Position numbers and translations under genes: made by a program. Below, piece after piece: positions 15,855 through 35,925 of a stretch of DNA of 36,057 nt. Position 1 is the stretch's first letter. Every line of letters starts with the position of its first letter. Under the pieces are notes generated by a model. It saw only the letters and a program-made list of their open reading frames with translations, ran no database searches and had not been told where the DNA came from. Origin of the DNA: an uncultured Atribacterota bacterium (GTDB lineage Bacteria > Atribacterota > Phoenicimicrobiia > Phoenicimicrobiales > Stramentimicrobiaceae); NCBI GenBank assembly GCA_964485485.1, contig CAZAJW010000141.1, forward strand, positions 1 to 36,057, read 5' to 3'.

Positions 15855-15869
15855 GAGTTAGTAATATTA

Positions 15870-16060
15870 TATAACTATGAAAACCACCTTCTCAGAAGGT
15901 GTAATGGTTAGATTAATTGGTTTCAATATGAAATAGACGAAGATAAGAAATATATTAATTTTTCACCAGGAGTTCAATGTAGGAAGTTTGATTGCTAAGA
16001 AAAAGCTAAACCTCTTTTAATGGTTCTTAAACTTAACCGCTATGCGGGTGCAATATTTAT
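15870..16060 (+). repeat. Dispersed structured intergenic element, copy A
   Basis: 5' hairpin CACCTTC/GAAGGTG with TAACTAT/ATGGTTA, core AATTTTTCACCAG, 3' CCGCTATGCGGGTGCAATATTT; similar to copies B, C, D. Confidence 0.8.
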
Positions 16061-16085
16061 TTATCTTCATAAATGGAGGCTAAGA

Positions 16086-16775
16086 ATGGACAACAACCAG
16101 AAAAATGAAAAGGATAAAAATATGCTAAAAAATAAAGAAGAATATAGGAAAATGAAAAAAAATGAATTGGTTGATATGCTAATTGATAGGGATAATGAAT
16201 TGAAAGAAAAGCAAACGAAATTAGAAAAATTTAAAAAGGCTCTTATTGATATGCAAGAAAACGAAAAAAATTATAAAGAGCAATTAATAAGGATGCAAGC
16301 TGATTTTGAGAATTATAAAAAAAGAGAAGAGAAGAAAAGAAGAGAATTTATGGAATATGCCAATAAAGACCTAATATGCCAGCTATTGTCTGTAATGGAT
16401 AATCTGGAAAGAGCTGTTTCCTATTCTCAGAACAAAGAACATCAGCCAGAAACAATCAGGGAAGGAATTAAGGGGACTTTAAAGGAATTTCGTAAAATAT
16501 TAGAAAAAGAAGGGTTAACCCCCATTAAGGCAGTTGGAGAAAAGTTTGATCCCTATTGTCATGAAGCAATCATGCAAGTAGAATCGGATAAATATCCAGA
16601 AGATACCGTGATGGAAGAAATTACTAAAGGGTATTACTTAAAATCCAATGTAATTCGACCATCAGTCGTAAAAGTATGTAAGGGGAAAACAGATAAAAAT
16701 AGTGATACTGACAGAGATAGTTCTGAAAATTCAATAGATAATAACAATAAAAATAATGATAATAATAATGATTAG
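16086..16775 (+). CDS. grpE: Nucleotide exchange factor GrpE
   Basis: [38 protein letters not shown]; start at ATG 16086 after GGAGG. Confidence 0.97.
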
Positions 16776-16795
16776 ATTTAAGGAGGAATGAAATT

Positions 16796-18751
16796 ATGGC
16801 TAAAGCAATTGGCATAGATTTGGGAACTACAAATTCAGTAGTATCCGTGATGGAAGGCGGTAAGCCTATTGTCATAGAAAACAAAGAAGGTAGCAGAACA
16901 ACGCCATCAATGGTTGCTTTCAGTAAAAAAGGAGAGCGACTGGTTGGATTACTAGCTAAAAGACAGGCGGTAACCAATTCCAAAAATACCATTTATTCTG
17001 TTAAACGTTTTATTGGTAGACGTTATAACGATCCGGAAGTACAAGAGATCAAGAAAGTACTTTCTTATGATATTGGTGAAGGCGAACATACTGATGTAAT
17101 GATAAAGGCGAAGGACAAGCAATATAGTCCGCAGGATATTTCTGCTATGATTTTACAAAATTTAAAACAGGCTGCAGAAGATCATATAGGTGAAGAAGTG
17201 AAAGATGCCGTTATTACTGTTCCCGCTTATTTTAATGATAATCAACGGGAAGCGACAAAAGCAGCAGGTCGTATTGCCGGTCTAAATGTACTGAGAATTA
17301 TCAATGAACCGACAGCTGCTTCCTTGGCTTATGGTTTGGATAAAAAGAAAAGTGAAAAAATTGCCGTTTTTGACCTGGGAGGCGGCACATTTGATATATC
17401 AATTCTTGATATAGGTGAAGGAATATTTGAAGTAAAGTCCACCAGCGGTGATACCTTTCTGGGTGGTGATGATTTTGACCAGCGTGTTATTAATTGGCTA
17501 ATTGATAGCTTCAAAAAAGACCAGGGTATTGACCTAGGCAAAGACCAAATGGCTTTGCAGAGATTGAAAGAGGCTTCCGAAAAAGCAAAATGTGAATTAT
17601 CTACATCGATTGAAACAGATATAAACTTACCTTTCATTACTGCAGATGCCAATGGTCCAAAACATTTAAATTATACTTTAACAAGGTCAAAACTGGAACA
17701 ATTAACTGAAGATCTTTTGAATAGAACCATCGAACCATGCAAAAAAGCATTATCGGATGCCAAGTTAACTGCTGATGACATTAATGAGGTAATCCTGGTG
17801 GGTGGTCAGACCAGAATGCCAAAGGTTCATGAAATTGTTAAGAAAATATTTGGTAAAGACCCTCATAAAGGAGTAAACCCGGATGAAGTTGTTGCCATGG
17901 GTGCTGCTATTCAGGCAGGTAAATTAAAGGGAGACGTAAAGGACATTCAATTGTTAGATGTAACTCCATTATCTCTAGGAATAGAGACATTGGGAGGCGT
18001 TTTCACCAAATTGATTGAGAAAAATACTACAATTCCGGCGTCACGTAAACAAATATTTTCAACTGCAACAGATAGCCAAACAGCAGTTGATATAAATGTA
18101 CTTCAAGGCGAACGACCTATGGCAAAGGATAATACCAGCTTAGGGCGTTTTCAGTTAGTCGGTATTCCACCGGCACCAAGAGGTGTTCCTCAAATTGAAG
18201 TGTCTTTTGATATTGATGCTAATGGTATCCTTAACGTTAAAGCTCAGGACAAAGGCACAGGTAAAGAACAAAAAATTACTATTAAACACTCTAGCGGTTT
18301 AACTGAAGAGGAAATACAAAAAAAGATAAAGGAAGCGGAACAGTATGCGGAAGATGATCGCAAACAAAAAGAAAAAGTTGAACTGCATAATCAGGCTGAT
18401 ACGCTTATCTATACGACAGAAAAGACATTAAAAGATGCCGGTGAGAAAATAGATGATAGTACGAAAAATGAGATCAATGACAATATCAGCCAGCTAAGAA
18501 AAGCTATGCAAGATGATAATATTGAACAAATGAAATCCGGCATAGAAAAGTTAACCAATTCTTCTCATAAATTAGCTGAAGAAATGTATAAGCAATCTGC
18601 CAGCCAGGAACAGCAACAAGCGAAAACCGATGATGCCGGGGCTTCGGCGGATAGCCAAAACCAGGAGGAATCAAGTGATTCCCAAAAAGAGGAAAAGGTT
18701 TATGATGCCGAATATAAAGAAGAAAATGAAGATAACAAAGATAAAGAATAA
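16796..18751 (+). CDS. dnaK: Chaperone DnaK (Hsp70)
   Basis: [41 protein letters not shown]. Confidence 0.99.
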
Positions 18752-18789
18752 TAAATATAATTTATAATTCTAATGATAACTTAATAACT

Positions 18790-18842
18790 GTTGAATTTCC
18801 CGAGCATGATAGAAAGAAATCTTGGAACTCGGGAAATTCAAC
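18790..18842. repeat. Perfect 15-bp inverted repeat between dnaK and dnaJ
   Basis: GTTGAATTTCCCGAG (18790-18804) / CTCGGGAAATTCAAC (18828-18842), 23-nt spacer. Confidence 0.85.
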
Positions 18843-18978
18843 GAATAAATATGTTGGCTAGTAAATAATAATAGAGCTATAATTCATTAGTTTACTACTG
18901 TTATAATATTACTAGCTGTCTAGATCTAATAATTCAATAATAATATAAAATAATTTTACCTAGAAGAGGTTATATGTT

Positions 18979-20139
18979 TTGGCAAATAAAGATTTTTATC
19001 AAATTCTGAACGTTAGCAAAGACGCAAGTCAGGAAGAAATTAAAAAAGCATATCGAAAACTGGCCTTAAAATATCACCCTGATGCCAATCCCAATAACAA
19101 AGAAGAGGCCGAAAAAAAGTTTAAAGAAATAGGGGAAGCTTATGCTATATTAAGTGACCCAGAAAAAAGGGCCAGATATGATCAATTTGGATCAGCTGAT
19201 ACTGCTAATAATGGAGCAGGTTTTGATTTTAGGAATTTTTATGGGGAAGGCATGGATGATTTTGGCAGCTTTAGCGACATATTTGAATCTTTTTTTGGCG
19301 GTGGTGGCAGTTCAAGAAGAAATTATCGACGAGCAGAGAGAGCCAGAAAAGGGGCTAATTTAAGATATAATTTAGAAATTAGCTTAAAAGAAGCCGCATT
19401 TGGTGCCGAAAAAAAGATTGAAATACCAACCTGGCAAACCTGTAGCCATTGTAAGGGGACCGGAGCAGAACCCGGAACTTCTAAAAAAACATGTCCTGAA
19501 TGTAATGGAACAGGTGAAATAAGAATGACACAAAATACCTTTTTTGGACAATCAATCAATATACAAACATGTCCCAGATGTAAAGGTAGCGGTCAAATTA
19601 TTGAATCACCTTGTAAGGTATGCCATGGAACTGGAAAGGTAAAGAGTAGAAAAACCATTAATGTAAAAATATTAGCAGGCGTGGAAAGCGGACATAGGCT
19701 CAGACTTACTGGAATGGGAGAACCTGGTGAAAACGGTGGTCCTTCCGGGGATCTATTTATTGTTCTTAATGTTAAGGAACATCCTGTTTTTAAACGGAAT
19801 GCTACTGATATCTATTGTGATCATAAAATTAGTTTGCCTAAAGCCATTTTAGGTGGAGAAACTACGGTTCCAACGTTAGAAGGAAATGTAAAAATGAGAA
19901 TACCTGCTGGCACACAGAGTAATACTGTCTTTCGATTAAGAGGAAAAGGTGCTTATAAATTAGGTACCAAAATTAGGGGTGACGAACATGTTAAAATTAT
20001 TGTCGAAATCCCACGAAATCTGAATCATAATTCCAAAAAACTGATATATGAATTGGCACAGGAAACTGGTGAAGATATTGATAAAATAGGTGAAAAAAAT
20101 TTTTTTGAAAAAGTTAAAGAAACCTTCACCAAAAAATAA
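18979..20139 (+). CDS. dnaJ: Chaperone DnaJ
   Basis: J domain with HPD, G/F-rich region, four CxxCxGxG repeats; TTG start. Confidence 0.99.
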
Positions 20140-20226
20140 TAAATTCTCATCAAATATCTCTGCTTGAAAATAATTTACTGAGCTGACTAAAAATTATTAA
20201 AATTAAAAGCAAAAACCGGAGAAAAA

Positions 20227-21564
20227 GTGAATCAAACAGTTGCCTTTAAGACAATAGGCTGTAAGGTTAATCAATATGAGACAGGCAATCTGCGACAGGC
20301 ATTTATTAAAAATGGTTATAGCGTAGTAGATTTTAAGGAAAAAGCAGATGTATTTTTTATTAATACTTGTGCCGTAACTAAAGAAGCAGAACGAAAATCA
20401 AAGCAGATGATTAGAAAAGCTGCCCGATTAAACCCTTCTGGAACTATAATTGTCACTGGCTGCGCTGTACAGGCCAATTTACGGGAAATCAAAGATTGTA
20501 ATAATTCAAAATATCATATTGTTAGCAATTATTACAAGGATGATATTTTTAATATATTCTGTAATTCGTCTTTTGAATACGTTAAAAAGTTAATCCATTA
20601 TAAACCTGCCAATCAAATTACCCGTTATGTTGAAAATGGTTTTTACAGTACAAGTAATCGCATTAGGGGATTGGTTAAAATTCAAGATGGATGTAATCAA
20701 TTTTGTAGTTATTGTGTCATACCATATCTAAGAGGAAGATCAAGAAGCAGAGCCCCAAAAGAGATATTCCTAGAAATTAATGAATTAGCCTCTAATAATT
20801 ATAAAGAAATTGTTTTGCTTGGAATTAATCTTGGTAGTTACGGAAATGATTTGGAAGATGAAAACATTAATTTAACAGAATTAATCCAAACAATTGAAAA
20901 AATATCGGGCATTGAAAGAGTTAGGTTAAGTTCAATTGAATTGCCATGGGTTACTGATGAATTAATTAATACCTTCCATAATTCCACAAAGCTTTGTCAT
21001 CATTTGCATATTCCCTTACAAAGTGGTGATAATCATATACTGAGTCTAATGAATAGAAAATATAACACTGGGCAATTTGAAAAAATCGTTAAGCAAATTA
21101 AGGAAAATATCCCGAATATTGCCATCACTACAGATGTTATCGTTGGTTTTCCCGGTGAAGATGATATTTCTTTTGAAAGAACTTATCAATTTATAAAAAG
21201 ACTTGCCTTTGCCAAAATACATGTGTTTCCATATTCCGAGAGGCCTTTTAATCTTGCTTCATTGTTACCAGATAAGGTTGAAAATGATACTATTAAAAAA
21301 AGAACCAAGAGACTGAATAATTTGTCTAAAGAACTTAGAAAAGATTTTTTTATAAAAAATATTGACCAAGATAGGACTGTTTTAGTTGAATATACAGGAT
21401 TAAAAAATAATCAGGACTATATCTGCGGTTTAACTGATAATTATATTAAAGTATGTATTTCAGGTATCAAGGCAAAAAAAGGACAGATGATAAAATTAAG
21501 ATTGAAGGAAGTTTTTGATTCTTACATTGAAGGAGAAAAAACTTACAGTTGTTACAGTTGTTAG
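20227..21564 (+). CDS. mtaB: tRNA t6A37 methylthiotransferase MtaB
   Basis: GCKVNQYE, NTCAVT, KIQDGCNQFCSYC, HVFPYS; usual position downstream of dnaJ; GTG start with GGAG RBS. Confidence 0.93.
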   Translation: MNQTVAFKTIGCKVNQYETGNLRQAFIKNGYSVVDFKEKADVFFINTCAVTKEAERKSKQMIRKAARLNPSGTIIVTGCAVQANLREIKDCNNSKYHIVSNYYKDDIFNIFCNSSFEYVKKLIHYKPANQITRYVENGFYSTSNRIRGLVKIQDGCNQFCSYCVIPYLRGRSRSRAPKEIFLEINELASNNYKEIVLLGINLGSYGNDLEDENINLTELIQTIEKISGIERVRLSSIELPWVTDELINTFHNSTKLCHHLHIPLQSGDNHILSLMNRKYNTGQFEKIVKQIKENIPNIAITTDVIVGFPGEDDISFERTYQFIKRLAFAKIHVFPYSERPFNLASLLPDKVENDTIKKRTKRLNNLSKELRKDFFIKNIDQDRTVLVEYTGLKNNQDYICGLTDNYIKVCISGIKAKKGQMIKLRLKEVFDSYIEGEKTYSCYSC

Positions 21565-21660
21565 AAAGAAAATAAAAATAATATTAGTTACTTAATTATA
21601 GTATATATAAATTAGTTTAGAAACTGATTAAAATATGAGATTTTAAAAAATATTATTGTT

Positions 21661-21688
21661 TTGATATTTTTTTGTTCTGTGCTATAAT
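21661..21688 (+). promoter_or_regulatory. Putative promoter of the nusA-infB operon
   Basis: TTGATA (21661-21666), 16 bp, TG-c-TATAAT (21683-21688). Confidence 0.7.
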
Positions 21689-21713
21689 ATAATAAATTTC
21701 AAAAATTTTTTTT

Positions 21714-21746
21714 AAAAGAGTGGTTTGTGGACCACTCTTTTGTTTT
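21714..21746 (+). terminator. rimP/nusA-operon leader hairpin (attenuator-like)
   Basis: AAAAGAGTGGT / ACCACTCTTTT 11-bp stem followed by T-rich tract; resembles the AGAGTGG...CCACTCT hairpin seen upstream of rimP-nusA operons. Confidence 0.75.
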
Positions 21747-21757
21747 GTAATTTTAAT

Positions 21758-22008
21758 ATTTAATTTAACCATAAAAAATTACCTTCTTAGACTTAGAAGG
21801 TGGTAATGGTTAAATTAAATGGTTTACCATAAAAAGATTAAGATAAGCTAGATGACAATTTTTTACCTGAAGCCCAAAGTTGGAAATAATATTGCTTAAA
21901 TAATATTATAGACTAAAATTAAATAAAAAATAGAAAGAAAAATGTTAAAAAGTTAAAACTCTTTTAAAGATTTTTAAAGTCACCCGCTATTTGGGTGCGA
22001 TATTTACT
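21758..22008 (+). repeat. Dispersed structured intergenic element, copy B (full length)
   Basis: 15-bp stem 21758-21772/21806-21820, core AGCTAGATGACAATTTTTTACCTGAAGCCCAAAGTTG, 3' CACCCGCTATTTGGGTGCGATATTTACT; colinear with reverse complement of 35691-35925. Confidence 0.92.
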
Positions 22009-22080
22009 TGTAATATTTACAAAAATATCCTAAATCATCATTCCCAAAATAAAAGGGGAGGATTAAAAGGTTAAGAAGCT

Positions 22081-23148
22081 ATGAATATAAATTTAATCAA
22101 GATATTGGACGAAATTGAAAAAGAAAAAGGCATTTCTAAAGAAGTGTTAATTGATACTATTGAAACATCTCTTGTTTCTGCATATAAAAAGAATTTTACA
22201 GAGGGTAAAAATAATATAGAAATAGTATTTAGCAAAGATACCGGTAAAGTACAGGTATTTACAAAAAAAGTAGTTGTGGATATTGTGAAAAACCCATCTT
22301 CGGAAATTGATATGGAGCATGCTACTCAGTATAAGCAGGGAGATGTTACTATAGGAGATGAAGTTGACATAGAAGTAACACCAAGGGAGTTTGGTCGAAT
22401 TGCCACTCAAACTGCCAAACAAGTTATTGTTCAAAAAATCAGAGAAGCAGAGAGAAAGGCAATTTATGAGCGTTATATTGACAAAGTCAGAGATATTGTG
22501 ACTGGAATTATACAACGTCAGGAAAACTATAATATTATTGTAGATTTAGGAAAAGCTGAAGCTGTCTTACCTCTAAACGAACAGGTAAAAAAGGAAAATT
22601 ATAGTAAAGGTAAACGCATGAAGTTTTATGTTATTGAGGTTAAAAAAACATCTAGAGGACCACGAATTGTACTTTCAAGGACACATCCTGATTTGTTGAA
22701 ACGTTTATTTGAATTGGAAGTTCCGGAGATACACGAAGGTTTGGTGGAGATTAAATGCATTGCCAGAGAAGCAGGGAAACGTTCAAAAATAGCGGTTGAT
22801 AGCAAGGAAGATATGGTTGATTCTATTGGTTCCTGTATTGGTGACCGAGGTTCCCGAATAAAATCTATAATGACAGAACTACAAGATGAAAAAATTGATG
22901 TTATTAAATGGAATGAAGATGATAAAGTATTTATTGCGAATTCACTTAATCCGGCAAAAGTCTCATTCGTACGATTGTTTGAAAAAGAAAAGAGAGCCCT
23001 GGTAGTTGTCGATGATGGACAGTTATCTCTTTCAATAGGCAAGGAAGGTCAAAATGCTAGATTGGCTGCCAGATTAACAGGATGGAAAATTGATATAAAG
23101 AGTGATTCTCAATACAAAAAAGAGAATTCAAATGAACAAAATGTATAA
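22081..23148 (+). CDS. nusA: Transcription termination/antitermination factor NusA
   Basis: FGRIATQTAKQVI, S1 domain, LSRT..LFELEVPEI, AREAGKRSKIAV, IGKEGQNARLAARLTGWKIDI. Confidence 0.98.
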   Translation: MNINLIKILDEIEKEKGISKEVLIDTIETSLVSAYKKNFTEGKNNIEIVFSKDTGKVQVFTKKVVVDIVKNPSSEIDMEHATQYKQGDVTIGDEVDIEVTPREFGRIATQTAKQVIVQKIREAERKAIYERYIDKVRDIVTGIIQRQENYNIIVDLGKAEAVLPLNEQVKKENYSKGKRMKFYVIEVKKTSRGPRIVLSRTHPDLLKRLFELEVPEIHEGLVEIKCIAREAGKRSKIAVDSKEDMVDSIGSCIGDRGSRIKSIMTELQDEKIDVIKWNEDDKVFIANSLNPAKVSFVRLFEKEKRALVVVDDGQLSLSIGKEGQNARLAARLTGWKIDIKSDSQYKKENSNEQNV

Positions 23149-23207
23149 TTGATGAAAAAAGCAGGAATATTAGCGATTAATAATATTTGTAATATACCTA
23201 TAATGTA

Positions 23208-23296
23208 AAGACGAAGAAAAAAATATCTGACAATTTTCACCTGAAGTCCAAAACAGGAGGCTATTAAAGCCAATTGCTAAGCGGGTGCGATATTTG
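23208..23296 (+). repeat. Dispersed structured intergenic element, copy C (short)
   Basis: TGACAATTTTCACCTGAAGTCCAAA core joined almost directly to TTAAAGCC...GCGGGTGCGATATTTGC; lacks 5' hairpin and A-rich middle. Confidence 0.8.
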
Positions 23297-23311
23297 CTTA
23301 GAGGAATAATA

Positions 23312-23590
23312 ATGAGAAATTCCAAAAAAATATCTTACAGAACTTGTATTGGTTGCCAGCTAAGAAAACCAAAAAAAGAATTATTAAGAATTATCAGAAC
23401 ACCTGAAGGTAGGATTGAAATAGATTTAACAGGCAAGAAATCAGGACGCGGAGCCTATTTGTGTTATAATATGAAATGTTTTGAAGAGGCAATTAAAAGA
23501 AATAGATTAGGAAAAGCATTAAAGGTAGAAATTTCACCGGAAACAATTAAATCATTAGAAGAAGAATATAAGGCAATAAGAAATAATTAG
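23312..23590 (+). CDS. ylxR: YlxR (DUF448 / RnpM) family RNA-binding protein
   Basis: RTCIGC, KKELLRI, GRGAYLC; between nusA and infB; start moved to ATG 23312 after GAGG. Confidence 0.93.
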   Translation: MRNSKKISYRTCIGCQLRKPKKELLRIIRTPEGRIEIDLTGKKSGRGAYLCYNMKCFEEAIKRNRLGKALKVEISPETIKSLEEEYKAIRNN

Positions 23591-23650
23591 TTAGAAAAAA
23601 TTCATCTAAATACAAGACAATGATTCCGGTTTATATGGAGGTCATCGAGT

Positions 23651-25597
23651 ATGAAAAAAAGAGTATATGAGGTAGCTGAAGACTTGAAAATTCCTACTAA
23701 AGAACTCATAGAATTTCTAAAAAAAGAGGGTATAAATGTGAAAAATCACATGAGTACCCTTGACAATGAAACAATAGAAATCATTCAAGAAGCTATTACA
23801 GAAGAAAGTAAGGAAGAAAAAGATAGGGATAAAGAAAAAAGGAAAGTAGTTGTATTAGAAAAAATGCCCAACCTGAAAGACTTATCAAAACACTTGAAAA
23901 TTCCTTTGTCAATAGCAATGCAACAAGTTTCTAAATTTGCTAATATTTATTCTGTGGACAAAGAATTACCATGGCAAATTGCCCAAAAAGTCTACAAACA
24001 ATACGATTACGAAGTTGATATTTCGACAAAATTAAAAAAGGCGCTTAAATCAAAGAATATAAAAAAGAATATAAAAGAGACTGAACATACATTAGTATCA
24101 AAATCCCCGGCTATTACAATTGTCGGACATGTGGATCATGGGAAAACAACACTTCTTGATATGATTAGAAAAACCAATGTTACCAAAAAAGAAGCAGGGG
24201 GTATTACTCAACATATTGGCGCTTATGTAGTAGAACTCAAAAAAAATAGATTTGTCTTTATTGATACTCCTGGACACGAGGCGTTTACTACCATGCGAGC
24301 ACGTGGAGTAAAGGCTACCGATATCGTTGTACTGGTTGTGGCAGCAGATGACGGAGTTATGCCTCAGACCGTTGAAGCTATAAATCATGCCAGGGCGGCT
24401 AATGTGCCTATTATTGTTGCCATTAATAAAATAGATAAAGCTAATGCTAATATTGATAAAGTAAAAAAAGATTTAGCAAAATATCAACTGGTTCCAGAGG
24501 ACTGGGGTGGAGATACGCTTGTAGCAGAAATATCCGCCCTACAGGGAAAAGGGATTAATGAGTTGTTAGAATTGATTTCCATACAGGCGGAAATGTTAGA
24601 ATTACAGGTTACACCAGAGCTGCCTGCCAGTGGAATAGTTATTGAAACAAAACTAGATAAAAGAAAAGGGATTCTTGGTACAGTATTAATTCAGGATGGA
24701 CATCTAGATATAGGAGATTATTTTGTTGTTGGGACTGCCTATGGAAAAGTGAAGAGCATGATGGATGATAGAGGAAATAAATTGAAGCACGTTGGGCCTT
24801 CAACGCCTGTTGAAATAACTGGTTTTAACAAAATGCCCTTAGCAGGAGATATTTTTCAGGTTGTTGCTGACGACCATTTTGCAAAAACAATTATTGACGG
24901 AAGAGAGTCAGAGGAAAAGAAAAAACAAAACAAGAGTCAAGAGATGGTTTCCTTAGATAATTTGTTTGAGGAGATGACAAAAGGTAAAATAAAAGAATTG
25001 AATATGGTTTTAAAGTGCGACACACAAGGTTCACTGGATGCTATTAAAGGTACACTTTCTAATCTGAGTAATGAAGAAGTCGAGATAAAAATTATTCACA
25101 GTGGAATTGGAGCGATAACTGAAACAGATATTATGCTTGGCTCAGCTTCTAATGCGTTAATTATAGGATTTAATGTGAAGGTTGATGTCAATGCCCAAAA
25201 GTTAGCAAAAAATGAAAAGATTGATGTAAGAATATATAATATAATATATGATTTAATTGATGAGGTTAAGGCTGCTTTAAAGGGGTATCTAAAACCAAAA
25301 TTAGAAGAAGTTGTCAACGGGAAAGCAGAGGTTAGAGAAATATTCAAAATACCCAAGATAGGCATTGTTGCTGGCTGTTATGTAACCGAGGGCAAAATAT
25401 CTACAAAAGATTATATTCGTGTCTTTCATGAAGACAGTAAGATATATGAGGGTAAAGATTTTTCGCTGAAACGATTCAAAGAAGATGTCAAAGAAGTGAA
25501 TGCCGGCTATGAGTGCGGTATAAATATAGCCAAAGTTGATGATCTCCAGGTAAAAGATATTATTGTTTTTTATAATTATAGGGAAGTGGAAAGATAA
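23651..25597 (+). CDS. infB: Translation initiation factor IF-2 (short form)
   Basis: N-terminal [53 protein letters not shown]. Confidence 0.99.
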
Positions 25598-25607
25598 AAA
25601 TAAGAGA

Positions 25608-25889: not shown

Positions 25890-25959
25890 ATAATATATTG
25901 AAAAAAAATTAATAAAATTAATAAAAGATAAATAGAAAAGGAAATAACAAGTAATTATA

Positions 25960-26337
25960 ATGGTGTTAGAACAAAAAAAGAAACATTTTGAAAAATTATT
26001 AAAAAGAAACATAAGCCATATTATACAAAAAAGAACTAAAGACCCAAGAATAGGTTTTGTAACAGTTACCAGAATAGTTCTGTCTGATGACTTGCATAAT
26101 GCTAGAATATTCATTTCTGTACTTGGTACTAAAGAAGAACAAGAGAAGAGCATGAAGGGCTTACATAGTGCAACCAAATTTATTAGAGCTGAATTGGCTT
26201 TTGGGTTAAAGAAATATCGTTTTACACCTTATATATCGTTTCATTATGATAAAGAATTAGAAAAAGTACATCAGGTTATGGCTCAGGTGTATAGACTGGA
26301 AAAAGAGAAAGAAACTGATAAAGAAGATGCAGAATAA
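25960..26337 (+). CDS. rbfA: Ribosome-binding factor A
   Basis: KDPRIGFVTVT, LSDDL..A.IFIS, TP.ISFHYD; operon position. Confidence 0.92.
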   Translation: MVLEQKKKHFEKLLKRNISHIIQKRTKDPRIGFVTVTRIVLSDDLHNARIFISVLGTKEEQEKSMKGLHSATKFIRAELAFGLKKYRFTPYISFHYDKELEKVHQVMAQVYRLEKEKETDKEDAE

Positions 26338-27319: not shown

Positions 27320-27367
27320 GATAATTAGAATGAATAATTAATTGTTTCTGATTCCAATTATAATATT

Positions 27368-28306
27368 ATGATAAAAGGCATTTTAAATATTAATAAGCCT
27401 GAGGGGATTACTTCAGCAAAAGCAGTTTCAAAGATTAAAGAAAATTTAAAATTAAACAAAGCTGGGCATACCGGTACATTAGACCCATTTGCTACTGGAA
27501 TTCTGCTGGTATGTATTAATCGTGCAACCAAAATTGCCCAATATCTTTCCGATTTGGATAAAGAATACATTGGAACAATGGTGCTTGGTATTTCTACAGA
27601 TACGCAAGACCTAAAAGGTAAAGTACTGAAAATCAGGAATGTTAACCAAGAGACACTCAATATTGGCAATCTAAGAGAGGTTTTTATAAACTTTCAGGGA
27701 AGTATATGGCAAAAACCGCCCATGTTTTCTGCCATTAGACACAAAGGTTTACGACTTTATAACCTTGCCAGAAAAGGCATTAAAGTTGATTTGGATTCTC
27801 GAAAAATATTTATACATCAAATAAGTATTTTAAAAATAAAATATGATTATTTCCCAAGCATTACCTTCAAAGTAAGATGTTCCAAAGGTACTTATATAAG
27901 GTCATTATGTGATGATATCGGTCAAAAATTAGGTTGCGGCGCGTTTTTATCTCAATTAGAACGAACCGAGATAGGCAACCATAATGTAAAACAATCAATT
28001 GATCTGGATAAATTTTTGAGTATGCCAATCAAGGAACAGCTTAAGAACGTATTGACTATTGATCAAGCTTTAAATAATTTTAACAAAATAATATTGTTGA
28101 AAGATGAAGAAATTGTAAATAGGGTAAAAAATGGAAGGCCATTCTTTGAGAGTGAAATAAGTGAAATAGTTAATAAAGAAGCTAATAGTAAATATAACGA
28201 TAGATTCAGGGTTAGTTCTTATGATGGCAAATTATTAGCGATAGGTAAAAAAGTAGAAGATGATAATTACCCAAAAAAGTATAAGGTTGAAAAAGTATTT
28301 ACATGA
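27368..28306 (+). CDS. truB: tRNA pseudouridine(55) synthase
   Basis: NKPEGITS, GHTGTLDPFATG, PPMFSA, CSKGTYIRSL. Confidence 0.97.
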   Translation: MIKGILNINKPEGITSAKAVSKIKENLKLNKAGHTGTLDPFATGILLVCINRATKIAQYLSDLDKEYIGTMVLGISTDTQDLKGKVLKIRNVNQETLNIGNLREVFINFQGSIWQKPPMFSAIRHKGLRLYNLARKGIKVDLDSRKIFIHQISILKIKYDYFPSITFKVRCSKGTYIRSLCDDIGQKLGCGAFLSQLERTEIGNHNVKQSIDLDKFLSMPIKEQLKNVLTIDQALNNFNKIILLKDEEIVNRVKNGRPFFESEISEIVNKEANSKYNDRFRVSSYDGKLLAIGKKVEDDNYPKKYKVEKVFT

Positions 28307-29280
28307 AAACTATTAAAGAGAATCATAATTATAAAAAAATCAATTTTGGTGTCGATAATAATAACTTGAAAAATTATATAGCATTAGGGTTTTTCGATGG
28401 TGTTCATTTGGGCCATCAGGCTCTCTTGAAGTGGTGTGTTAAGGAGGCAAATCTTGCTAATGCTACGAGCACTGCCATTTTATTCGATGAGCATCCAGAA
28501 AAGGTTATTAAAAATTATAATAATTTTTATCTTTTGACAACATTAGAAGAGAGGATTAGACGAATTAGGCAACTGGGAATTCAGCAAATAATTATTATTA
28601 ATTTTAATGATAAATTTCAGAAAATAACCGCTGAAGATTTCATTATAAAAATATTGTTAAAAAAATTTAATATGAGTGCTGTTTTTGTTGGCTATAATTA
28701 TAATTTCGGTTTCCAAAAAAAAGGTGATACTAAGCTTATAAAAGAATTAAGTAACTATTATAATTTTAATTCATATATTATGGAACCAGAGACAATAGAT
28801 AAGAAACAAAAAATAAGTACTACAATTATTAAGGAACATTTAATAAAAGGTAATATTGAAAAAGCCAATAAACTTTTGGGATATCCTTATGAACTTAACG
28901 GAGAAGTAATTCATGGAGAAAAAAGGGGAAGCACTGTTCTGTCTTTTCCAACAGCCAATTTAAAATTAGCAAAAGAAAAACTTATACCTAAAAATGGAGT
29001 ATATATTGCATTTGCCTATTCTGAGGGTAAAAAATGCAATAGTTTGGTTAATATTGGATTTAGGCCTACTTTTAGAAAGACAAAAGACGATACTTCTGTA
29101 GAAATCTATATATTTGATTTTTGTGATGATATTTACAATAAAAAAATATTTATTTCGCTGCTAAAAAGAATAAGGGATGAGAAAAATTTTACAGATGCAA
29201 GTGATTTGGCGGCGCAAATAAAAAAAGATAAAATAATTGCTGAAAAGTTTTTTAGAGAGCATGAACATAGTTTGAGCTAA
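28303..29280 (+). CDS. ribF: Bifunctional riboflavin kinase / FAD synthetase
   Basis: GFFDGVHLGHQ, VGYNYNFG, FPTAN, GVY, NIGFRPTF, IRDE. Confidence 0.96.
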   Translation: MKTIKENHNYKKINFGVDNNNLKNYIALGFFDGVHLGHQALLKWCVKEANLANATSTAILFDEHPEKVIKNYNNFYLLTTLEERIRRIRQLGIQQIIIINFNDKFQKITAEDFIIKILLKKFNMSAVFVGYNYNFGFQKKGDTKLIKELSNYYNFNSYIMEPETIDKKQKISTTIIKEHLIKGNIEKANKLLGYPYELNGEVIHGEKRGSTVLSFPTANLKLAKEKLIPKNGVYIAFAYSEGKKCNSLVNIGFRPTFRKTKDDTSVEIYIFDFCDDIYNKKIFISLLKRIRDEKNFTDASDLAAQIKKDKIIAEKFFREHEHSLS

Positions 29281-29406
29281 AATATTATTTAAAAAGTTAA
29301 TCTTCAATACTGTTTTTATTAAATATTTTCTAAAAAAATATTCTTTAAATAGGGATATATTCAAAATAATATATTTTCTGAAGTAGTAAGAGTGAGTTAA
29401 ATAGAT

Positions 29407-29435
29407 TTGAATGAGTAAATTAATTATGGTATAAT
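29407..29435 (+). promoter_or_regulatory. Putative promoter for rpsO-pnp
   Basis: TTGAAT (29407-29412), 17 bp, TG-g-TATAAT (29430-29435); the very AT-rich background lowers confidence. Confidence 0.55.
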
Positions 29436-29588
29436 ATATATTTGAATAATATAAAAAAACATATTTCGTTATTAAGTATTTTGAGAAGAAAATACTAGAA
29501 GAAAACATATAAAAATTGAAAAATAATTGAAGAAATTTAATTATTATGCCTATATAAACATTATAACAGAAAGAGAGAGTAAGTTGAA

Positions 29589-29855
29589 ATGATTAAAAAA
29601 GAGGTTAAAGATAAAATCATAAAAGGTTACCAGCATCATGAGAAAGATACTGGTTCAACCGAAGTTCAAGTGGCTATCTTGACCGAGCAAATAAATAGCC
29701 TTACCCAGCATTTAATACAAAATAAGAAAGACTCTCATTCCAAACATGGTCTATTAAAAATAGTTGGGAAAAGAAGGAGTCTGCTTAATTATCTTAAAGA
29801 TAATGATATTGATAAATATCGTCAACTAATTAGTCAGTTAAAATTAAGAAAGTAA
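29589..29855 (+). CDS. rpsO: 30S ribosomal protein S15
   Basis: [34 protein letters not shown] end. Confidence 0.98.
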
Positions 29856-29910
29856 AAAAATATAAATATTTTTACCTTCTTGTAAAATAATTTAAGGAGA
29901 AAAGAAATTT

Positions 29911-32088
29911 ATGACCAATTCTATTACTAGAAAAACCGAAATTAAAGTCGGTGAAAAAACCATTAAAATAGAAACCGGTAAGCTAGCAAAACAGGCAAAT
30001 GGATCTGTATTGCTTACCTGCGGAGAAACAGTTGTACTTGTGACGGCTGTAGCTTCCAAAGAGCCACGAGAAGGAATAGACTTTTTCCCTTTACTAGTAG
30101 ATTATGAGGAAAAGTTCTATGCTGCTGGTAAAATACCGGGTGGTTTTTTTAAGAGAGAAGGCAAGCCAAGCGAAAATGCTATTCTAACTTCTCGGCTTAT
30201 TGACCGGCCTTTGCGGCCTTTGTTTCCTGAAGATTACCGTAATGATGTGCAAATTATCACTTCTGTTTTGTCTTATGACCAAACAAATCTTCCGGATATT
30301 ATTTCAATCATAGGCGCTTCCTGTGCTCTTTCTATTTCGGATATACCATTTAATAAACCGGTTGCAGCGGTAAGAATGGGTTATCTTAATGGAGAATATT
30401 TGATTAATCCATCTGTAGAAGAATTAAAAGAATGCCAGCTTAATATAATTGTAGCCGGAACCAAGGATTCTGTTATTATGTTAGAAGGCGAAGCACAAGA
30501 ATTATCTGAAGAAGATATTTTAATCGCAATTGAAAAAGCACAAGTTGAAATCGATAAAATTGTAGATATGCAGATACAATTTGCCAAGGAAATAAAAGAA
30601 GGTGATCTAGAAAAATCTTGGCAGCCTGACCAAATATTAATACAGGAAAAAGAAAAGTATTATCAATTCATAAAACAAAATTATTCTGATAAGATTGAAA
30701 AAGCCTTGACAATATTTGAAAAAAATGAGAGAGAAGATAATTTAAATAAAATATCTGACGAAATAATCTCTCATTATGATAATGAAGAAAAAGACAATGA
30801 ATCTAATAGTTCATTGATAAAAAGCAGCTTTGATTCAATATGCAAAGAATTAATGAGAAAATTGATTGTTGAGAAAGAAATGCGCATTGATCACCGTAAA
30901 ATAGATGAAGTAAGAACAATTGAATGTGAAATAGGAATTTTACCGAGAGTACATGGTAGTGCGCTTTTTACCAGAGGGCAAACACAAGCATTGGTAATTA
31001 CCACACTTGGTTCTGTCAGAGATGAACAGTCTATTGATACTTTAGAAGAAGACACTTCTCGAAAGTTCTATTTACATTACAATTTTCCTCCTTTCTCAGT
31101 AGGTGATGTTAAACCAAGAAGATCTCAATCCAGAAGAGAGATTGGACATGGAGCCCTAGCTGAAAAGGCTATCAAGGCGCTTATTCCTGATGAAACAGAT
31201 TTCCCTTATACTATCCGAGTTGTCTCAGAAATACTAGAGTCAAACGGATCATCGTCTATGGCAACAGTATGTGGCACCAGCATGTCCTTAATGGATGCAG
31301 GGGTTCCTATAAAAAAACCAATTGCAGGTATTGCTCTTGGTCTTGTAAAAGAGCAAGATAATTACAAAATATTAACTGATATTTTAGGGATCGAAGATCA
31401 CTATGGCGATATGGATTTTAAGGCTGCAGGTTCTATTGATGGTATTACTGCTATTCAAATGGATTTAAAAATTGATGGTGTTTCCATTGATATATTACGA
31501 GATATACTGGAAAAATCAAAAAAAGGTCGTAATTATATTCTTGACAAAATGAATAAAGTAATAGCTAGGCCAAAAGAGAATTTGTCTGATTATGTTCCGA
31601 AAATGTTCATCATGAAGGTTAATCCGGATAAAATTGGGAGCGTTATTGGTCCAAGCGGTAGAAATATAAAGAAAATTATCGAAGAAAGTGATACCGGAAT
31701 TGACATAAAAGATAATGGGGAGATATTTATTACTGCTGATACTACTGAAAAGATTGATAAGGCCAAGTATCTTATCGAAGGATTGGTAAGAGAGGTAAAA
31801 GCCGGAGAAATATATAATGGAAAGGTAAAAAGAATTACCAAATACGGGGCCTTTGTTGAAATACTACCTGGTGTGGAAGGTCTTTTACATATATCCAATT
31901 TATGCCATTACCATGTTGACAAAGTAGAAGACGTTATAAATGTAAATGACGAATTTCAGGTAAAGGTTATTGGCGTTGACCAACAGGGCAAAATTGATTT
32001 AAGCAAGAAAGAGCTAACTCCTAAAAACAGCAGAGATGATAGAGATAATGGTGGTAGTCACTCTCGCAGAAAATCTTCATATAGATAA
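29911..32088 (+). CDS. pnp: Polyribonucleotide nucleotidyltransferase (PNPase)
   Basis: DFFPL, GKIPGGFFKRE, RLIDRPLRP, RREIGHG, SNGSSSMA, GDMDFK, KH and S1 domains. Confidence 0.99.
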   Translation: MTNSITRKTEIKVGEKTIKIETGKLAKQANGSVLLTCGETVVLVTAVASKEPREGIDFFPLLVDYEEKFYAAGKIPGGFFKREGKPSENAILTSRLIDRPLRPLFPEDYRNDVQIITSVLSYDQTNLPDIISIIGASCALSISDIPFNKPVAAVRMGYLNGEYLINPSVEELKECQLNIIVAGTKDSVIMLEGEAQELSEEDILIAIEKAQVEIDKIVDMQIQFAKEIKEGDLEKSWQPDQILIQEKEKYYQFIKQNYSDKIEKALTIFEKNEREDNLNKISDEIISHYDNEEKDNESNSSLIKSSFDSICKELMRKLIVEKEMRIDHRKIDEVRTIECEIGILPRVHGSALFTRGQTQALVITTLGSVRDEQSIDTLEEDTSRKFYLHYNFPPFSVGDVKPRRSQSRREIGHGALAEKAIKALIPDETDFPYTIRVVSEILESNGSSSMATVCGTSMSLMDAGVPIKKPIAGIALGLVKEQDNYKILTDILGIEDHYGDMDFKAAGSIDGITAIQMDLKIDGVSIDILRDILEKSKKGRNYILDKMNKVIARPKENLSDYVPKMFIMKVNPDKIGSVIGPSGRNIKKIIEESDTGIDIKDNGEIFITADTTEKIDKAKYLIEGLVREVKAGEIYNGKVKRITKYGAFVEILPGVEGLLHISNLCHYHVDKVEDVINVNDEFQVKVIGVDQQGKIDLSKKELTPKNSRDDRDNGGSHSRRKSSYR

Positions 32089-32109
32089 TAGAAAATATAG
32101 TTATTGATG

Positions 32110-32583
32110 ATGAATAAAGAAATAGAAAAAATAGAAGTTAAAATAGAAAAGGATAAAGGTTGTGATGACTTGCCTTTACCAAAAGCAGCCAGTAAATATG
32201 CTTCCGGTGTAGATCTTTTTTCTGCCGAAGAAGGTGCTGTAGAAATTGATAAAGGTGAAATAATATTAGTCTCAACAGGCATTAAAATAGCCTTGCCGAT
32301 AGGCTTTGAAGCCCAGGTTAGACCTAGGAGTGGATTAGCCTATCGTTATGGTATTACTGTCCTCAATACGCCAGGTACTATTGATTCGGATTATCGTGGT
32401 GTGATAAAGATAATTCTGATCAATCATGGTAAAGAAAAATTTATTGTAAATCGTGGAGACCGCATTGCACAGCTAGTGATTCAAAGAATATTTCAGCCAG
32501 TTTTGATAGAAACAAAACAATTAGACAATACCAAGCGGGGCATTGGTGGTTTTGGACATACCGGAATTAAAACTAATCAATAA
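32110..32583 (+). CDS. dut: dUTP diphosphatase
   Basis: SGVDL, RPRSG, GTIDSDYRG, DRIAQL, RGxGGFGHTG; start 32104, 32107 or 32110. Confidence 0.97.
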   Translation: MNKEIEKIEVKIEKDKGCDDLPLPKAASKYASGVDLFSAEEGAVEIDKGEIILVSTGIKIALPIGFEAQVRPRSGLAYRYGITVLNTPGTIDSDYRGVIKIILINHGKEKFIVNRGDRIAQLVIQRIFQPVLIETKQLDNTKRGIGGFGHTGIKTNQ

Positions 32584-32638
32584 GAGATAACAATCATACA
32601 GGAATATCATTCATAGGAAAATAGAAGTAAGGAAGCCA

Positions 32639-33457
32639 ATGCACTATGTTATTTTAGGTTTAATTCAAGGGTTAACCGAATTTCTTCCAGTAAGTAGTTC
32701 TGGCCATCTGGTAATTGCCCAATACCTTCTAGGGTTACAAATACCAGGTGTTGCCTTTGAAACATTTGTTCATTTTGGCACATTGTTGGCTGTTATTTTT
32801 TTGTTTAGAAATGATATTAAAGAAATTTTACTCGCCTTCTGCAGAAGCCTTAATAAAATATATATTCCCAAAAAGTTTTTTAACCATCTTCGAGATGATC
32901 TGTTATGCAAATTTGCCTGGTTATTAGTTATAAGTACTATACCGGGAGCACTAATTGGATATTATTTCAATACTATGTTCGAAAAACTTTTTGGAAATCC
33001 AGTCATCACTTCTTTGATGCTCATTATAACTGGATTTTGCCTTTTTTTGACAGATAAATATTTGATTCAAGGTAGCAAAAAAATTAAAGAGATGAATGGC
33101 ATTGATGCAATCTTTATAGGTTTTGCGCAGGCATTAGCAATTATTCCTGGCATATCTCGTTCAGGTTTTACTATAATGATGGCTCTTAACAGACAAATAG
33201 ACCGTGAATTCGCGGCAAAATACTCTTTTATTTTGTCTGTTCCGATTATTATAGGTGCTTCAATATTTAAAGTTAAAGAAATATTTCATCTTGAAATAAA
33301 TGTTAATTTGTTGCTCATTTCTGGAATAACTGCTTTTTTATCAGGTTATTGGGCTATGATATTTTTTATAAAAATGCTAACAAAATATAAATTGCGATTA
33401 TTTAGCTATTATCTATGGATTATTGGAATCGTGGTAATCTTTATTTATTTATCTTAA
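32639..33457 (+). CDS. uppP: Undecaprenyl-diphosphatase (BacA/UppP)
   Basis: QGLTEFLPVSSSGHL, PGISRSG, SFILSVP; hydrophobic. Confidence 0.97.
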   Translation: MHYVILGLIQGLTEFLPVSSSGHLVIAQYLLGLQIPGVAFETFVHFGTLLAVIFLFRNDIKEILLAFCRSLNKIYIPKKFFNHLRDDLLCKFAWLLVISTIPGALIGYYFNTMFEKLFGNPVITSLMLIITGFCLFLTDKYLIQGSKKIKEMNGIDAIFIGFAQALAIIPGISRSGFTIMMALNRQIDREFAAKYSFILSVPIIIGASIFKVKEIFHLEINVNLLLISGITAFLSGYWAMIFFIKMLTKYKLRLFSYYLWIIGIVVIFIYLS

Positions 33458-33474
33458 TACTAAAGGTGGGGGAA

Positions 33475-35688
33475 ATGGCAAAAAATATTAAGAGGCATTA
33501 CTCAATAAGAAAAAGAGCTTTAGGTATCATCATCATTGCAATTGCTATCTATTATTTATTTTCCATATTATTTCCTGCAAGCAGCTTTCTATTTATTAAT
33601 GTTATTATAAATAATATTAATAAATTAATCGGGCTTGGAAAATATTTTATTTTCTTATTCTTAATAGTAGAAGGAATATGCCTTTTATTTAATTACCGTT
33701 TTCAAAATTATTATAATAAGATTTTCGGGATAACAACTTTAGTATTAATAATCCTGGTTTTCATTCATCTAAAATTAATCTTTATTGATCATGCCTATTT
33801 ACTGGCAAGAGATGGAGCAGGTGGTGGATTATATGGATTCTATCTAGCAAGATATCTTAATAATTATTTTGGTTTAACCGGGGCATATCTTTTCCTTATT
33901 GCCCTTGGCCTAATTGCCATTCTATTTATCACCGATGTTTCTTTTCTTTATGCCATTAGCTTATTCTTCAGTAAAATTTACCAGATACTCAGTAAGCTCT
34001 TTTCCGGCATAATAACAAAAAGAAAAGTAATAGAAAGACCAAATAAAGAAAAAACTATTAGTATTTATTCAGATAAGCAAGACGAACCCAAAAAAAGTCC
34101 GGAACCTATTTTTAGCAAGAAATTTCCTTCCAAAGCGAAAAAAAATAGTGAGCCGGCGATACAGGGGAAGATTAATTTCTCTGTTAAAAATAAGGATAAT
34201 ATTAATGGAAAGGCTAAAGATAACAAATATATTATACCACCTACTAACTTATTAAATGAAGTAAAAAAAGAGCATAGAGCAAAAGGTCAAGAAAAAATAA
34301 AGAATAATATCATATTGCTGCAAAAAACATTAGATAATTTTGGTATCCAAGGAGATGTAATTGGAGCAACACAGGGACCGACAGTTACAAGATATGAAAT
34401 ACAGCCGGCACCGGGTGTTAAAGTGTCAAAAATTACCAATCTCAGTAATGATATTGCTTTGGCCTTTGCTGCAGCTTCCGTGAGAATAGAAGCACCAATT
34501 CCAGGCAAAAATGCCATTGGTATTGAGGTACCTAATAGGGAAAAAGATACTGTATTACTAAGGGAAATTCTTGAATCAAAAGACTATCAAAATAACTCAC
34601 TTATTTTGCCTATTGCATTAGGAAAAGATATTGGTGGAAAGAATATTATCGCAGATTTAGTTGATTTGCCGCATTTGCTTATTGCTGGTTCTACCGGTTC
34701 CGGAAAAAGCGTGTGTCTTAATTCAATTATTTTAAGTTTATTATATCGTTTTGGACCTGAAATGATAAGGTTTGTGATGGTTGATCCAAAGAGAGTTGAA
34801 CTAAATGTTTATAATGGAATACCTCACTTGATTATTCCAATTATCACCAATACAAAAAAAGTTGACAAAGTATTGAACTGGGCTATTTCTGAAATGGAAA
34901 ACCGATTTAAAATATTTGCTGAAGTAGGTGTCCGTAATTTAAAAGGATACCATGAATATATGAAAAGTATAAAAACAGATGAAGAACCTTTACCATATAT
35001 AGTTATTATTATTGATGAATTGGCAGACTTGATGTTATCTTCGCCAGTCAAGGTAGAAGAAGCTTTATGTAGATTAGCACAAATGACCAGAGCTACCGGA
35101 ATTCATTTAATTATCGCTACCCAGAGACCTTCTGTAGATATTATTACCGGCTCGATAAAGATAAATTTCCCATCACGTATTGCTTTTGCAGTTTCAACAC
35201 AGGTGGATTCAAGGACCATTTTAGATGTTAACGGAGCTGAAAAATTATTGGGAAATGGTGACATGTTATTCTCACCAATAAATGCGTCTAAACCAATACG
35301 TGCCCAGGGCTCTTTTGTTTCTGAAAGAGAGATTAAAAATATTGTTTCCTTTTTAGAAGATAATGGACCTACACCTGATTATAAGGAAAATATCCTTAAT
35401 CATAAAAAAACCCAGGAAAGTTTAATAGAAGAAGAGAATGAGGAGGAAGAAGAAGATGAATTGTTTGAAGATGCCGTTGATACCATTATCAATAATAACC
35501 AGGCCTCAATATCAATATTGCAAAGAAAGTTAAGAATAGGTTATACCAGGGCTGCCCGCTTGATAGATATTATGGAAAAAAAAGGAATGGTTGGGCCATA
35601 TGATGGACGGAGTCCAAGGAAGATACTACTTTCTAAGGATGATTATTTATCAAGAAAAAATAATTATGATACTCAGGAAAATGAATGA
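33475..35688 (+). CDS. ftsK: DNA translocase FtsK/SpoIIIE
   Basis: N-terminal TM region, GPTVTRYE, RIEAPIPGK, PHLLIAGSTGSGKS, DPKRVEL, ATQRPSVD, gamma domain LQRKLRIGYTRAARL; start moved to ATG 33475. Confidence 0.98.
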   Translation: MAKNIKRHYSIRKRALGIIIIAIAIYYLFSILFPASSFLFINVIINNINKLIGLGKYFIFLFLIVEGICLLFNYRFQNYYNKIFGITTLVLIILVFIHLKLIFIDHAYLLARDGAGGGLYGFYLARYLNNYFGLTGAYLFLIALGLIAILFITDVSFLYAISLFFSKIYQILSKLFSGIITKRKVIERPNKEKTISIYSDKQDEPKKSPEPIFSKKFPSKAKKNSEPAIQGKINFSVKNKDNINGKAKDNKYIIPPTNLLNEVKKEHRAKGQEKIKNNIILLQKTLDNFGIQGDVIGATQGPTVTRYEIQPAPGVKVSKITNLSNDIALAFAAASVRIEAPIPGKNAIGIEVPNREKDTVLLREILESKDYQNNSLILPIALGKDIGGKNIIADLVDLPHLLIAGSTGSGKSVCLNSIILSLLYRFGPEMIRFVMVDPKRVELNVYNGIPHLIIPIITNTKKVDKVLNWAISEMENRFKIFAEVGVRNLKGYHEYMKSIKTDEEPLPYIVIIIDELADLMLSSPVKVEEALCRLAQMTRATGIHLIIATQRPSVDIITGSIKINFPSRIAFAVSTQVDSRTILDVNGAEKLLGNGDMLFSPINASKPIRAQGSFVSEREIKNIVSFLEDNGPTPDYKENILNHKKTQESLIEEENEEEEEDELFEDAVDTIINNNQASISILQRKLRIGYTRAARLIDIMEKKGMVGPYDGRSPRKILLSKDDYLSRKNNYDTQENE

Positions 35689-35690
35689 TT

Positions 35691-35925
35691 GAGTAAATAT
35701 CGCACCCGCATAGTGGGTGGCTTTAAGAACCTCTAAAAGAGGCTTAACTCTTTTTCTTTCGTTTTTTGATTTAATCTTTGGCTATAATGTTTCTTAAGCA
35801 ATAGCTTTTCAACTTTGGGCTTCGGGTGAAAAATTGTCATCTAGCTACTATTAATATTTTTATGGTAAAAACAATCTATTTAACCATTACCATTTCTTGG
35901 AAGGTGGTAATGGTTAAATAAAATA
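35691..35925 (-). repeat. Dispersed structured intergenic element, copy D (full length, inverted)
   Basis: 16-bp stem 35877-35892/35905-35920; reverse complement contains AGCTAGATGACAATTTTTCACCCGAAGCCCAAAGTTG and CACCCACTATGCGGGTGCGATATTTACT. Confidence 0.92.

Follow-up and report, generated by a model that had tools for sequence, protein, structure and literature searches.

Four intergenic repeats in essential operons of an uncultured Atribacterota bacterium are very probably gene-less derivatives of a small IS200/IS605-family insertion sequence

We examined a 36,057-nucleotide stretch of DNA from an uncultured Atribacterota bacterium (hereafter the window), in which four copies, A to D, of a short repeat lie among genes whose products Pfam identifies as HrcA, GrpE, Hsp70, NusA, YlxR, IF-2 and FtsK, the names that a first-pass annotation made from the sequence had given them, together with a radical-SAM protein. 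That annotation had described the four copies as an unannotated family of structured non-coding elements, and we found each with the described motifs in its place and in an intergenic position, with boundaries that we refined from empty sites and the family consensus. The copies align as the ordered modules proposed for them, of which we refer below to the 5' hairpin (H5), CORE and the 3' end (E3), and copies B and D are colinear over ~240 nt. The genome that holds the window (G000) comprises 2.34 Mb in 357 contigs, with 34% G+C and 96.5% completeness, and it is compared below with, among others, a same-genus genome (G001) whose flanking sequence is 90–94% identical to the window's. L-numbers below denote loci from relatives, metagenomes or G000, and C-numbers denote contigs.

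Copy A (15871–16060, + strand) occupies the hrcA/grpE gap, directly 3' of a TTAT (15867–15870, +; the transposon-adjacent motif, TAM) that is kept in the empty site of G001. It possesses a left hairpin, CORE and right end and is diverged, with its best match elsewhere in the genome at 78.9% identity over 199 nt (E 1e-39), a similarity well beyond chance. Copy B (21765–22007, +) is full length and directly follows a strong intrinsic-terminator-like hairpin (21713–21742, +; 13 pairs and then a T run) that ends the radical-SAM gene transcript, such that the copy sits between this terminator and the nusA leader. We evaluated hairpins by DNA folds against 200 shuffles and by an RNAalifold consensus of 46 full copies, and for the inner left-end hairpin of copy B (ACCTTC..GAAGGT, 21781–21801, +), which lies within a longer palindrome specific to the miniature form, the two agree (z -3.28, with 1 of 200 shuffles as good). 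At its other end, copy B presents a 'guide' tetranucleotide AAAG (21976–21979, +) 5' of the right-end hairpin, a position that covaries with the element's last base in the 61 autonomous copies described below, then the hairpin itself (CACCCG..TGGGTG, 21981–21997, +), which folds and is the consensus hairpin, and finally, as its last four bases, TTAC (22004–22007, +; the transposon-encoded motif, TEM).

The remaining two copies differ in completeness. Copy C (23203–23297, +) is 5'-truncated, with a CORE fragment joined to the terminal right end, has neither the 5' hairpin nor the CTCTTTTA hairpin, and stops 14 nt before the ylxR start codon; the profile recovers it in two pieces (model positions 68–127 and 205–248), but copy C was itself in the seed alignment and the recovery is thus not fully independent. 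Copy D (35693–35917, -) is full length and convergent with ftsK, and its long left-end palindrome (35877–35920, -) folds at -14.3 kcal/mol (z -7.0, 0 of 200 shuffles as good), while its right-end hairpin (35703–35719, -) folds weakly alone (z -1.38 in a 72-nt stretch) and draws its support from conservation across the family.

Searching all G000 contigs with an nhmmer profile built from the four-copy alignment returned 155 matches at E ≤ 1e-5, and a second round returned 207 at E ≤ 1e-4, which collapse to 174 non-redundant loci, revealing the genome-wide repeat family that the first-pass annotation had proposed. Together these loci cover 27,312 bp, or 1.17% of the 2.34-Mb assembly. By module content they divide into H5+CORE+E3 (46 loci), CORE+E3 (46), E3 (43), H5 (15), CORE (9), H5+CORE (7) and fragments (8), and many short forms join the left tip to the right hairpin end; since these retain both tips, they represent internal deletions. 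Nearest-neighbor identity within the genome has a median of 85%, with certain subfamilies at 92–97%. Genome-wide, 8 of the 139 matches with a 3' end overlap a crude open reading frame (ORF) call by more than 15 nt. Besides copy B, others (L097b, C298, C40) directly follow terminator hairpins, and two (C227, L092) follow tRNA 3' ends.

Beyond this genome, with copy D as query, matches occurred in 19 of 41 relatives and in 21 of 86 genomes across the phylum, and by family they fell to the window's own (f1; 13 of 21 genomes, plus G000) and to a sister family within Atribacterota (f2; 7 of 30), with 0 of 34 in the other five families. An exact 18-mer from the right end was found mostly in metagenome-assembled genomes (MAGs) titled Atribacterota.

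We compared the sites of the copies with those of relatives. Copy A is missing from G001, where the flanks join directly after ...ATTAT, and exactly copy B is missing as well, the alignment stopping at 21766 and resuming at 22008. At the site of copy C, G001 holds a short T-rich stretch (~6–8 nt) in place of the copy, while the copy D site is also filled there (L084 1227–1487). In five relatives, 0 of 10 nusA or grpE loci carried a copy and 1 of 5 ftsK loci did (G001). Parsimony makes A, B and C gains. The comparison also works in the other direction: of 18 G001 copies examined, in 17 regions, 6 share a site with a G000 copy and at least 4 occupy sites that are empty in G000, the rest being at contig ends or complex.

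Among these filled and empty pairs, five clean junctions (A, B, L002, L092 and L101) fit the insertion of an element running from TTAACCAT to TATTTAC 3' of TTAT or TAAT without duplication, and four other pairs (C, L091, L097a and L097b) are complex. Across the family, the conserved left tip reads TTTATTT and then AACCAT, and the right tip GGGTGCG and then ATATTTAC, usually with a T next. The tips are not inverted copies of each other, so that there are no terminal inverted repeats, and both ends carry subterminal hairpins by RNAalifold and DNA folds. In G000, 43 of the 53 left ends that could be parsed have TTAT before them, and TTAC ends 63 of 111 parsed copies. We found no sign of target duplication, in that the variable bases beyond the conserved tips differ between the left and right sides of a copy.

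For 7 G001 copies at shared sites (including L084, L094, L098, L100, L102 and L103), whose flanks matched the syntenic contig of G000, the same-site G000 copy was the best match in 1 of 7, and same-site copies being usually less alike than different-site copies suggests either reuse of sites or exchange between copies. Beside the copy D counterpart in G001, ~720 nt (L084 505–1226) without an ORF of at least 60 aa lie between two small genes and the element; the G000 counterpart of this stretch is beyond the window's end. At a further G001 locus (L146, G001:C133; 1148–1391 and 1476–1903), a different IS200 copy, with a TnpA 39% identical to the cognate TnpA described below and its own CCCACCTG..GGTGGG hairpins, lies directly 3' of the end of a full miniature element; element ends may be targets of further insertions.

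Searches of the window's contig for Y1, TnpB and IS110 transposases were without match, in line with the first pass, which had noted no transposase in the window, and in G000 as a whole we found no left/right module pair around a gene. Running the repeat profile around Y1-transposase genes of relatives (29 loci) revealed one complete case, L138 in an f2 genome (G036), which has on one strand the left module (model positions 3–91), a 147-aa tnpA ORF and the right module (162–248). The tnpA product belongs to the IS200/IS605 transposases, scoring 149.8 bits with NF033573 (cut-off 55); the gene's ATG falls within the motif that opens CORE in the miniature copies, and its TAG stop lies in the loop of a CTCTTTTAG hairpin. 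A small ORF starting from the CORE ATG was evaluated as a gene and rejected, as that ATG is a relic of the tnpA start codon and the ORF is not conserved in copy A.

In Atribacterota genomes, 4 of 4 complete tnpA copies are flanked by both modules and a truncated fifth has the left module, and a tnpA scan of metagenomes found 213 relatives, the best 80 of which were used for module counts: the left module was present in 67 of the 73 loci with room upstream, the right module in 60 of the 64 with room downstream, and both in 61 of 80, with a median insertion sequence (IS) length of 578 bp. TTAT precedes 46 of 51 parsed IS copies. The ends of the parent IS fold as well (left z -3.2, right z -4.85), the right end forming two hairpins, with the tnpA stop in the loop of the first, and the left end a 9-bp inner hairpin and nothing longer, which makes the long left palindrome a feature of the miniature form. 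What the miniature form keeps is the left end up to the tnpA start codon and the right end from the A/G-rich tnpA tail on. CORE-bearing matches occur at 4 of the 80 IS loci, each of them a neighboring element, and CORE (~60 nt), which in the miniature copies separates the two retained parts, is thus specific to the miniature form. At three metagenome loci (L178, L179 and L180), an apparent second left end (TTCACCTTAA...) directly adjoins the right end of the IS; given the resemblance of the terminal motif to the target motif, this suggests insertion in tandem.

The parent IS also presents a possible signature of target reading. In the 61 IS copies with both ends, the four bases on the 5' side of the right hairpin combine with the terminal motif as AAAG/TTAC (36 copies), AAAC/TTAG (16) or otherwise (9), and TTAG never occurs with AAAG. 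At the left end, the guide is an A run facing TTAT, which is consistent with the same relation but invariant. By analogy, the pairing corresponds to the guide-to-cleavage-site relation described for IS200/IS605. In IS608, the left end pairs AAAG with TTAC. Covarying TAM/TEM and guide sequences are described in a study of ISGst elements (PMC10055086).

To summarize this evidence, we interpret the four stretches, with high though not complete confidence, as gene-less, non-autonomous derivatives of a small IS200/IS605-family IS, that is, as palindrome-associated transposable elements (PATEs) or miniature inverted-repeat transposable elements (MITEs). The first-pass annotation had left a choice between a miniature mobile element and a multi-copy structured RNA, and it is the former that is borne out, by the 174 loci, the clean presence and absence against the same-genus genome, and an IS200-type parent with the same two ends. 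Its estimate of novelty was set too high, because the elements fall within the already described IS200/IS605 family: this is a known kind of element newly seen in Atribacterota, not a new kind of system. Our literature search found no paper joining Atribacteria, Atribacterota or Atribacter with repetitive elements, MITE or IS200.

The likeness to IS200/IS605, and to its IS200 type with tnpA only (IS608 being the mechanistic paradigm), begins with the Y1 HUH TnpA of the autonomous relatives. It extends to subterminal hairpins in the absence of terminal inverted repeats and to duplication-free insertion on the 3' side of a short motif and, less firmly, to a match between the cleavage motif and the four bases 5' of the hairpin foot and to the orientation of the copies on one strand. 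PMC7290912 and PMC10055086 set out the hairpins, the guide and the lagging-strand preference of that family. The window copies differ in having no tnpA, a longer left palindrome than the parent and the extra CORE. If the family's known mechanism applies, TnpA supplied in trans would bind both hairpins on one DNA strand, with cuts 3' of TTAT (left end) and behind TTAC (right end); the freed single strand would leave as a circle and be joined 3' of another TTAT, for the most part where the lagging-strand template is single-stranded, and the insertion would leave no target duplication. Such a single-strand mechanism would account for the missing terminal inverted repeats, the clean empty sites, the one-strand orientation and the internal deletions that keep both tips, and we infer that a transposase acts or acted in trans on the elements in this lineage.

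Several observations weigh against this interpretation. A cognate tnpA was not found in G000 (tblastn, E ≤ 1e-3, in an incomplete assembly) or in 21 other f1 genomes (incomplete MAGs, from which repeats often drop out during assembly), and it is present in 4 of the 86 phylum genomes, all of them f2; this bears on current activity, not on ancestry. No transposition has been observed, and copies A, B and C look recently gained, yet their nearest G000 copies are just 79–85% identical. The parent IS has no CORE. The guide/end covariation at the IS level may reflect just two subfamilies and thus few independent events, and the corresponding bases in G000 do not covary (G-C 34, G-T 16, A-C 11, A-T 5). 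Finally, the one-way orientation of the copies cannot be assigned to mechanism over selection in a genome whose large contigs carry a median of 98% of their coding bases on a single strand.

This last point concerns an alternative in which the orientation arises from selection: copies in reverse would form terminator-like hairpins with T runs that are polar in operons and would be lost. The bias itself is strong. Between co-directional genes, 89 of 94 loci run in the gene sense, a bias that every module class shows, and copies with a 3' end are gene-sense over reverse by 71 to 4; the locally G-rich strand carries 85 of 99 loci. That orientation fits local gene direction slightly better than the GC-skew proxy favors selection, as do the terminator-like sites called in the left hairpins of A (15901–15885) and B (21801–21781) when these are read in reverse, and 29 of 68 left ends carry an A-run variant that would give a reverse T run. 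Working in the opposite direction, right-end-only copies are biased too (26 to 4), and copy B is gene-sense although it lies behind an intrinsic terminator, where polarity should not matter. In addition, IS200/IS605 elements are biased towards the lagging-strand template, according to PMC7290912, and the observed bias is what lagging-strand-template insertion would predict, such that the family's mechanism already anticipates it. In the 28 G000 contigs of at least 15 kb, the strand holding that median of 98% of coding bases is the G-rich one in 28 of 28, 84% of adjacent gene pairs are co-directional, and the gene gaps (300 majority-strand, 15 minority-strand) leave 1–2 loci informative for separating gene from replication direction. 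Because the two directions coincide almost fully, the causes of the bias are inseparable here; selection and strand-specific insertion are, moreover, not mutually exclusive. We regard selection as a possible but rather unlikely source of the orientation.

Relative to a non-autonomous IS200/IS605 derivative, an origin as REPIN-like repeats, mobilized by domesticated Y1 transposases of G000 that resemble RAYTs (REP-associated tyrosine transposases, REP standing for repetitive extragenic palindrome) and not by an IS200 TnpA, appears very unlikely. The two systems are alike in that hairpin-forming intergenic repeats are tied to Y1 transposases, and G000 does possess RAYT-like genes: it has 5 Y1_Tnp matches, with three complete genes scoring 50.6–79.9 bits against the REP-associated tyrosine transposase model (cut-off 80), and 39 of the 41 relatives have Y1 genes, whereas searches of f1 did not find the cognate IS200 tnpA. 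These G000 genes, however, are flanked by other hairpin repeats of their own, and an nhmmer scan of six contigs (the five with Y1 genes plus the IS110-bearing C246) revealed an element module just on C222, ~4 kb from the gene. With no element module adjoining them, we rejected the RAYT-like proteins as the cognate enzyme, though they might still cross-mobilize the element. There is, moreover, a canonical IS200 TnpA whose IS has exactly these ends. The element does not have the form of a REP doublet, and it derives from an IS200 present in multiple copies as opposed to a single-copy domesticated gene.

The search around the Y1 genes also brought to light other repeats of this genome. A second G000 repeat consists of hairpins with a GGGGACGGTTC core at 12 exact sites (C122/C291, C321, C246, C320, C43 and others); copies lie on both sides of RAYT-like Y1 genes of 264–268 aa (C122/C291, C321), the classical RAYT/REP layout, and one lies beside the partial IS110 gene on C246. 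A third (C222, C26) consists of GTAG-preceded palindromes with a GGGCAGAC..GTCTGCCC core, found on both sides of the C222 Y1 gene. On C72 (162–1136, L106), a 324-aa ORF fuses a Y1 domain to a DnaA C-terminal helix-turn-helix (PF01797 + PF08299).

The other option of the first-pass annotation was a multi-copy functional structured RNA (a cis-regulatory leader, a processing or stabilizing element, or a small RNA) kept for its RNA fold, with mobility incidental, and this we consider most unlikely. Almost every copy lies gene-sense in an operon spacer, at median distances of 41 nt from the preceding stop codon and 57 nt from the following start codon, and is thus probably co-transcribed. Several hairpins are conserved, one CORE pair is C-G in 35 copies, U-A in 15 and U-G in 13, and the CORE apical sequence is strongly conserved while the parent IS has no CORE, all of which would suit an RNA. 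Expression data add a 193-nt contig from an RNA library that carries CORE and right-end pieces, a weak indication given that DNA can occur in such libraries. No RNA run contained more than 6% of the sampled words, and sequence contigs from four runs show ~20–35-fold depth at copy B, a pile-up that a repeat would be expected to give. A TG-extended -10-like motif in the right end was assessed as a promoter and set aside, the consensus scan having called none in A, B or C.

Against the RNA stands that its conserved hairpins are the IS ends; since they are the transposase-recognition hairpins, the option has no support of its own. Comparison with Rfam, which the first pass had called for, gave no match for the family at gathering thresholds, nor at E ≤ 10 beyond chance-level miRNA-like hairpins: the whole-window gathering scan returned a T-box alone, and permissive scans at B, C and D returned chance-level hairpins that scored far under the gathering cut-offs. 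That T-box leader (1352–1552, +; RF00230, 99 bits against a gathering cut-off of 93) lies just upstream of an 890-aa ORF (1627–4299). RNAalifold gives no consensus CORE fold, and the copies vary in number and in the modules that they contain. Copies A, B and C are, as described above, missing from the same essential operons of the same-genus genome, and with the nusA and grpE loci of the five relatives empty too, those operons do not need them.

The chance that these are conventional MITEs moved by a DDE transposase is practically negligible. Their length (~250 nt), abundance, AT-rich target sites and internally deleted variants would fit, but the tips are not inverted copies of each other, nothing beyond the conserved T-rich motif is duplicated, the empty sites are as simple insertion would have them, the elements are confined to one strand, and element modules occur at 0 of 30 IS110 loci of relatives. 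We also rejected TnpB with an omega-RNA, as G000 has no PF07282 match, and IS110 with a bridge RNA, given one partial IS110 gene in G000, the same empty count at IS110 loci, and an IS110 distribution in the 41 relatives that does not track the repeat.

As a non-autonomous IS200/IS605 derivative, the family can be set beside other short elements. PATEs are short, ends-only IS200/IS605 derivatives thought to be mobilized in trans, according to PMC7290912, and PATE-like minimal ISGst elements appear in PMC10055086. The present elements share with PATEs of the ISGst and Halanaerobium kind this origin as short ends-only derivatives, and differ in number, with 174 loci here against one PATE-like sequence reported from Halanaerobium, in that searches of the host family did not find the cognate tnpA, and in a modular build to which CORE has been added. 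Streptococcus pneumoniae has modular intergenic repeats too, the BOX elements, in which modules are combined variably and of which ~100 copies per 2-Mb genome are co-transcribed with their neighbors; the likeness is in appearance only, without sequence relation, and we know of no identified parent IS for BOX. PATEs are also said to occur in Haloquadratum walsbyi.

For annotation, an apparent 'mystery RNA family' becomes a mobile element that can be labeled, which should prevent false non-coding RNA calls, and ~170 loci per genome become maskable in several uncultured Atribacterota genera; with 20 of the 174 loci within 60 nt of a contig end, masking should help MAG assembly. As a very small IS200 (578 bp) whose TTAT target is clear, whose guide and end covary and whose ends-only derivative is abundant, the parent should likewise be useful for understanding how Y1 transposases read their targets. 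For the organism, recent insertions in essential operons (hrcA-grpE, upstream of nusA, and nusA-ylxR) are evidently tolerated. CORE is strongly conserved across genera, and we raise as a doubtful but not negligible idea that it was acquired as a functional part (e.g., an RNA or protein-binding domain) and that, with the reverse terminator hairpin, it would act as an insulator or regulator of operon spacers. If that were true, such selection could explain the persistence and spread of the elements in a family whose searched genomes yielded no cognate transposase.

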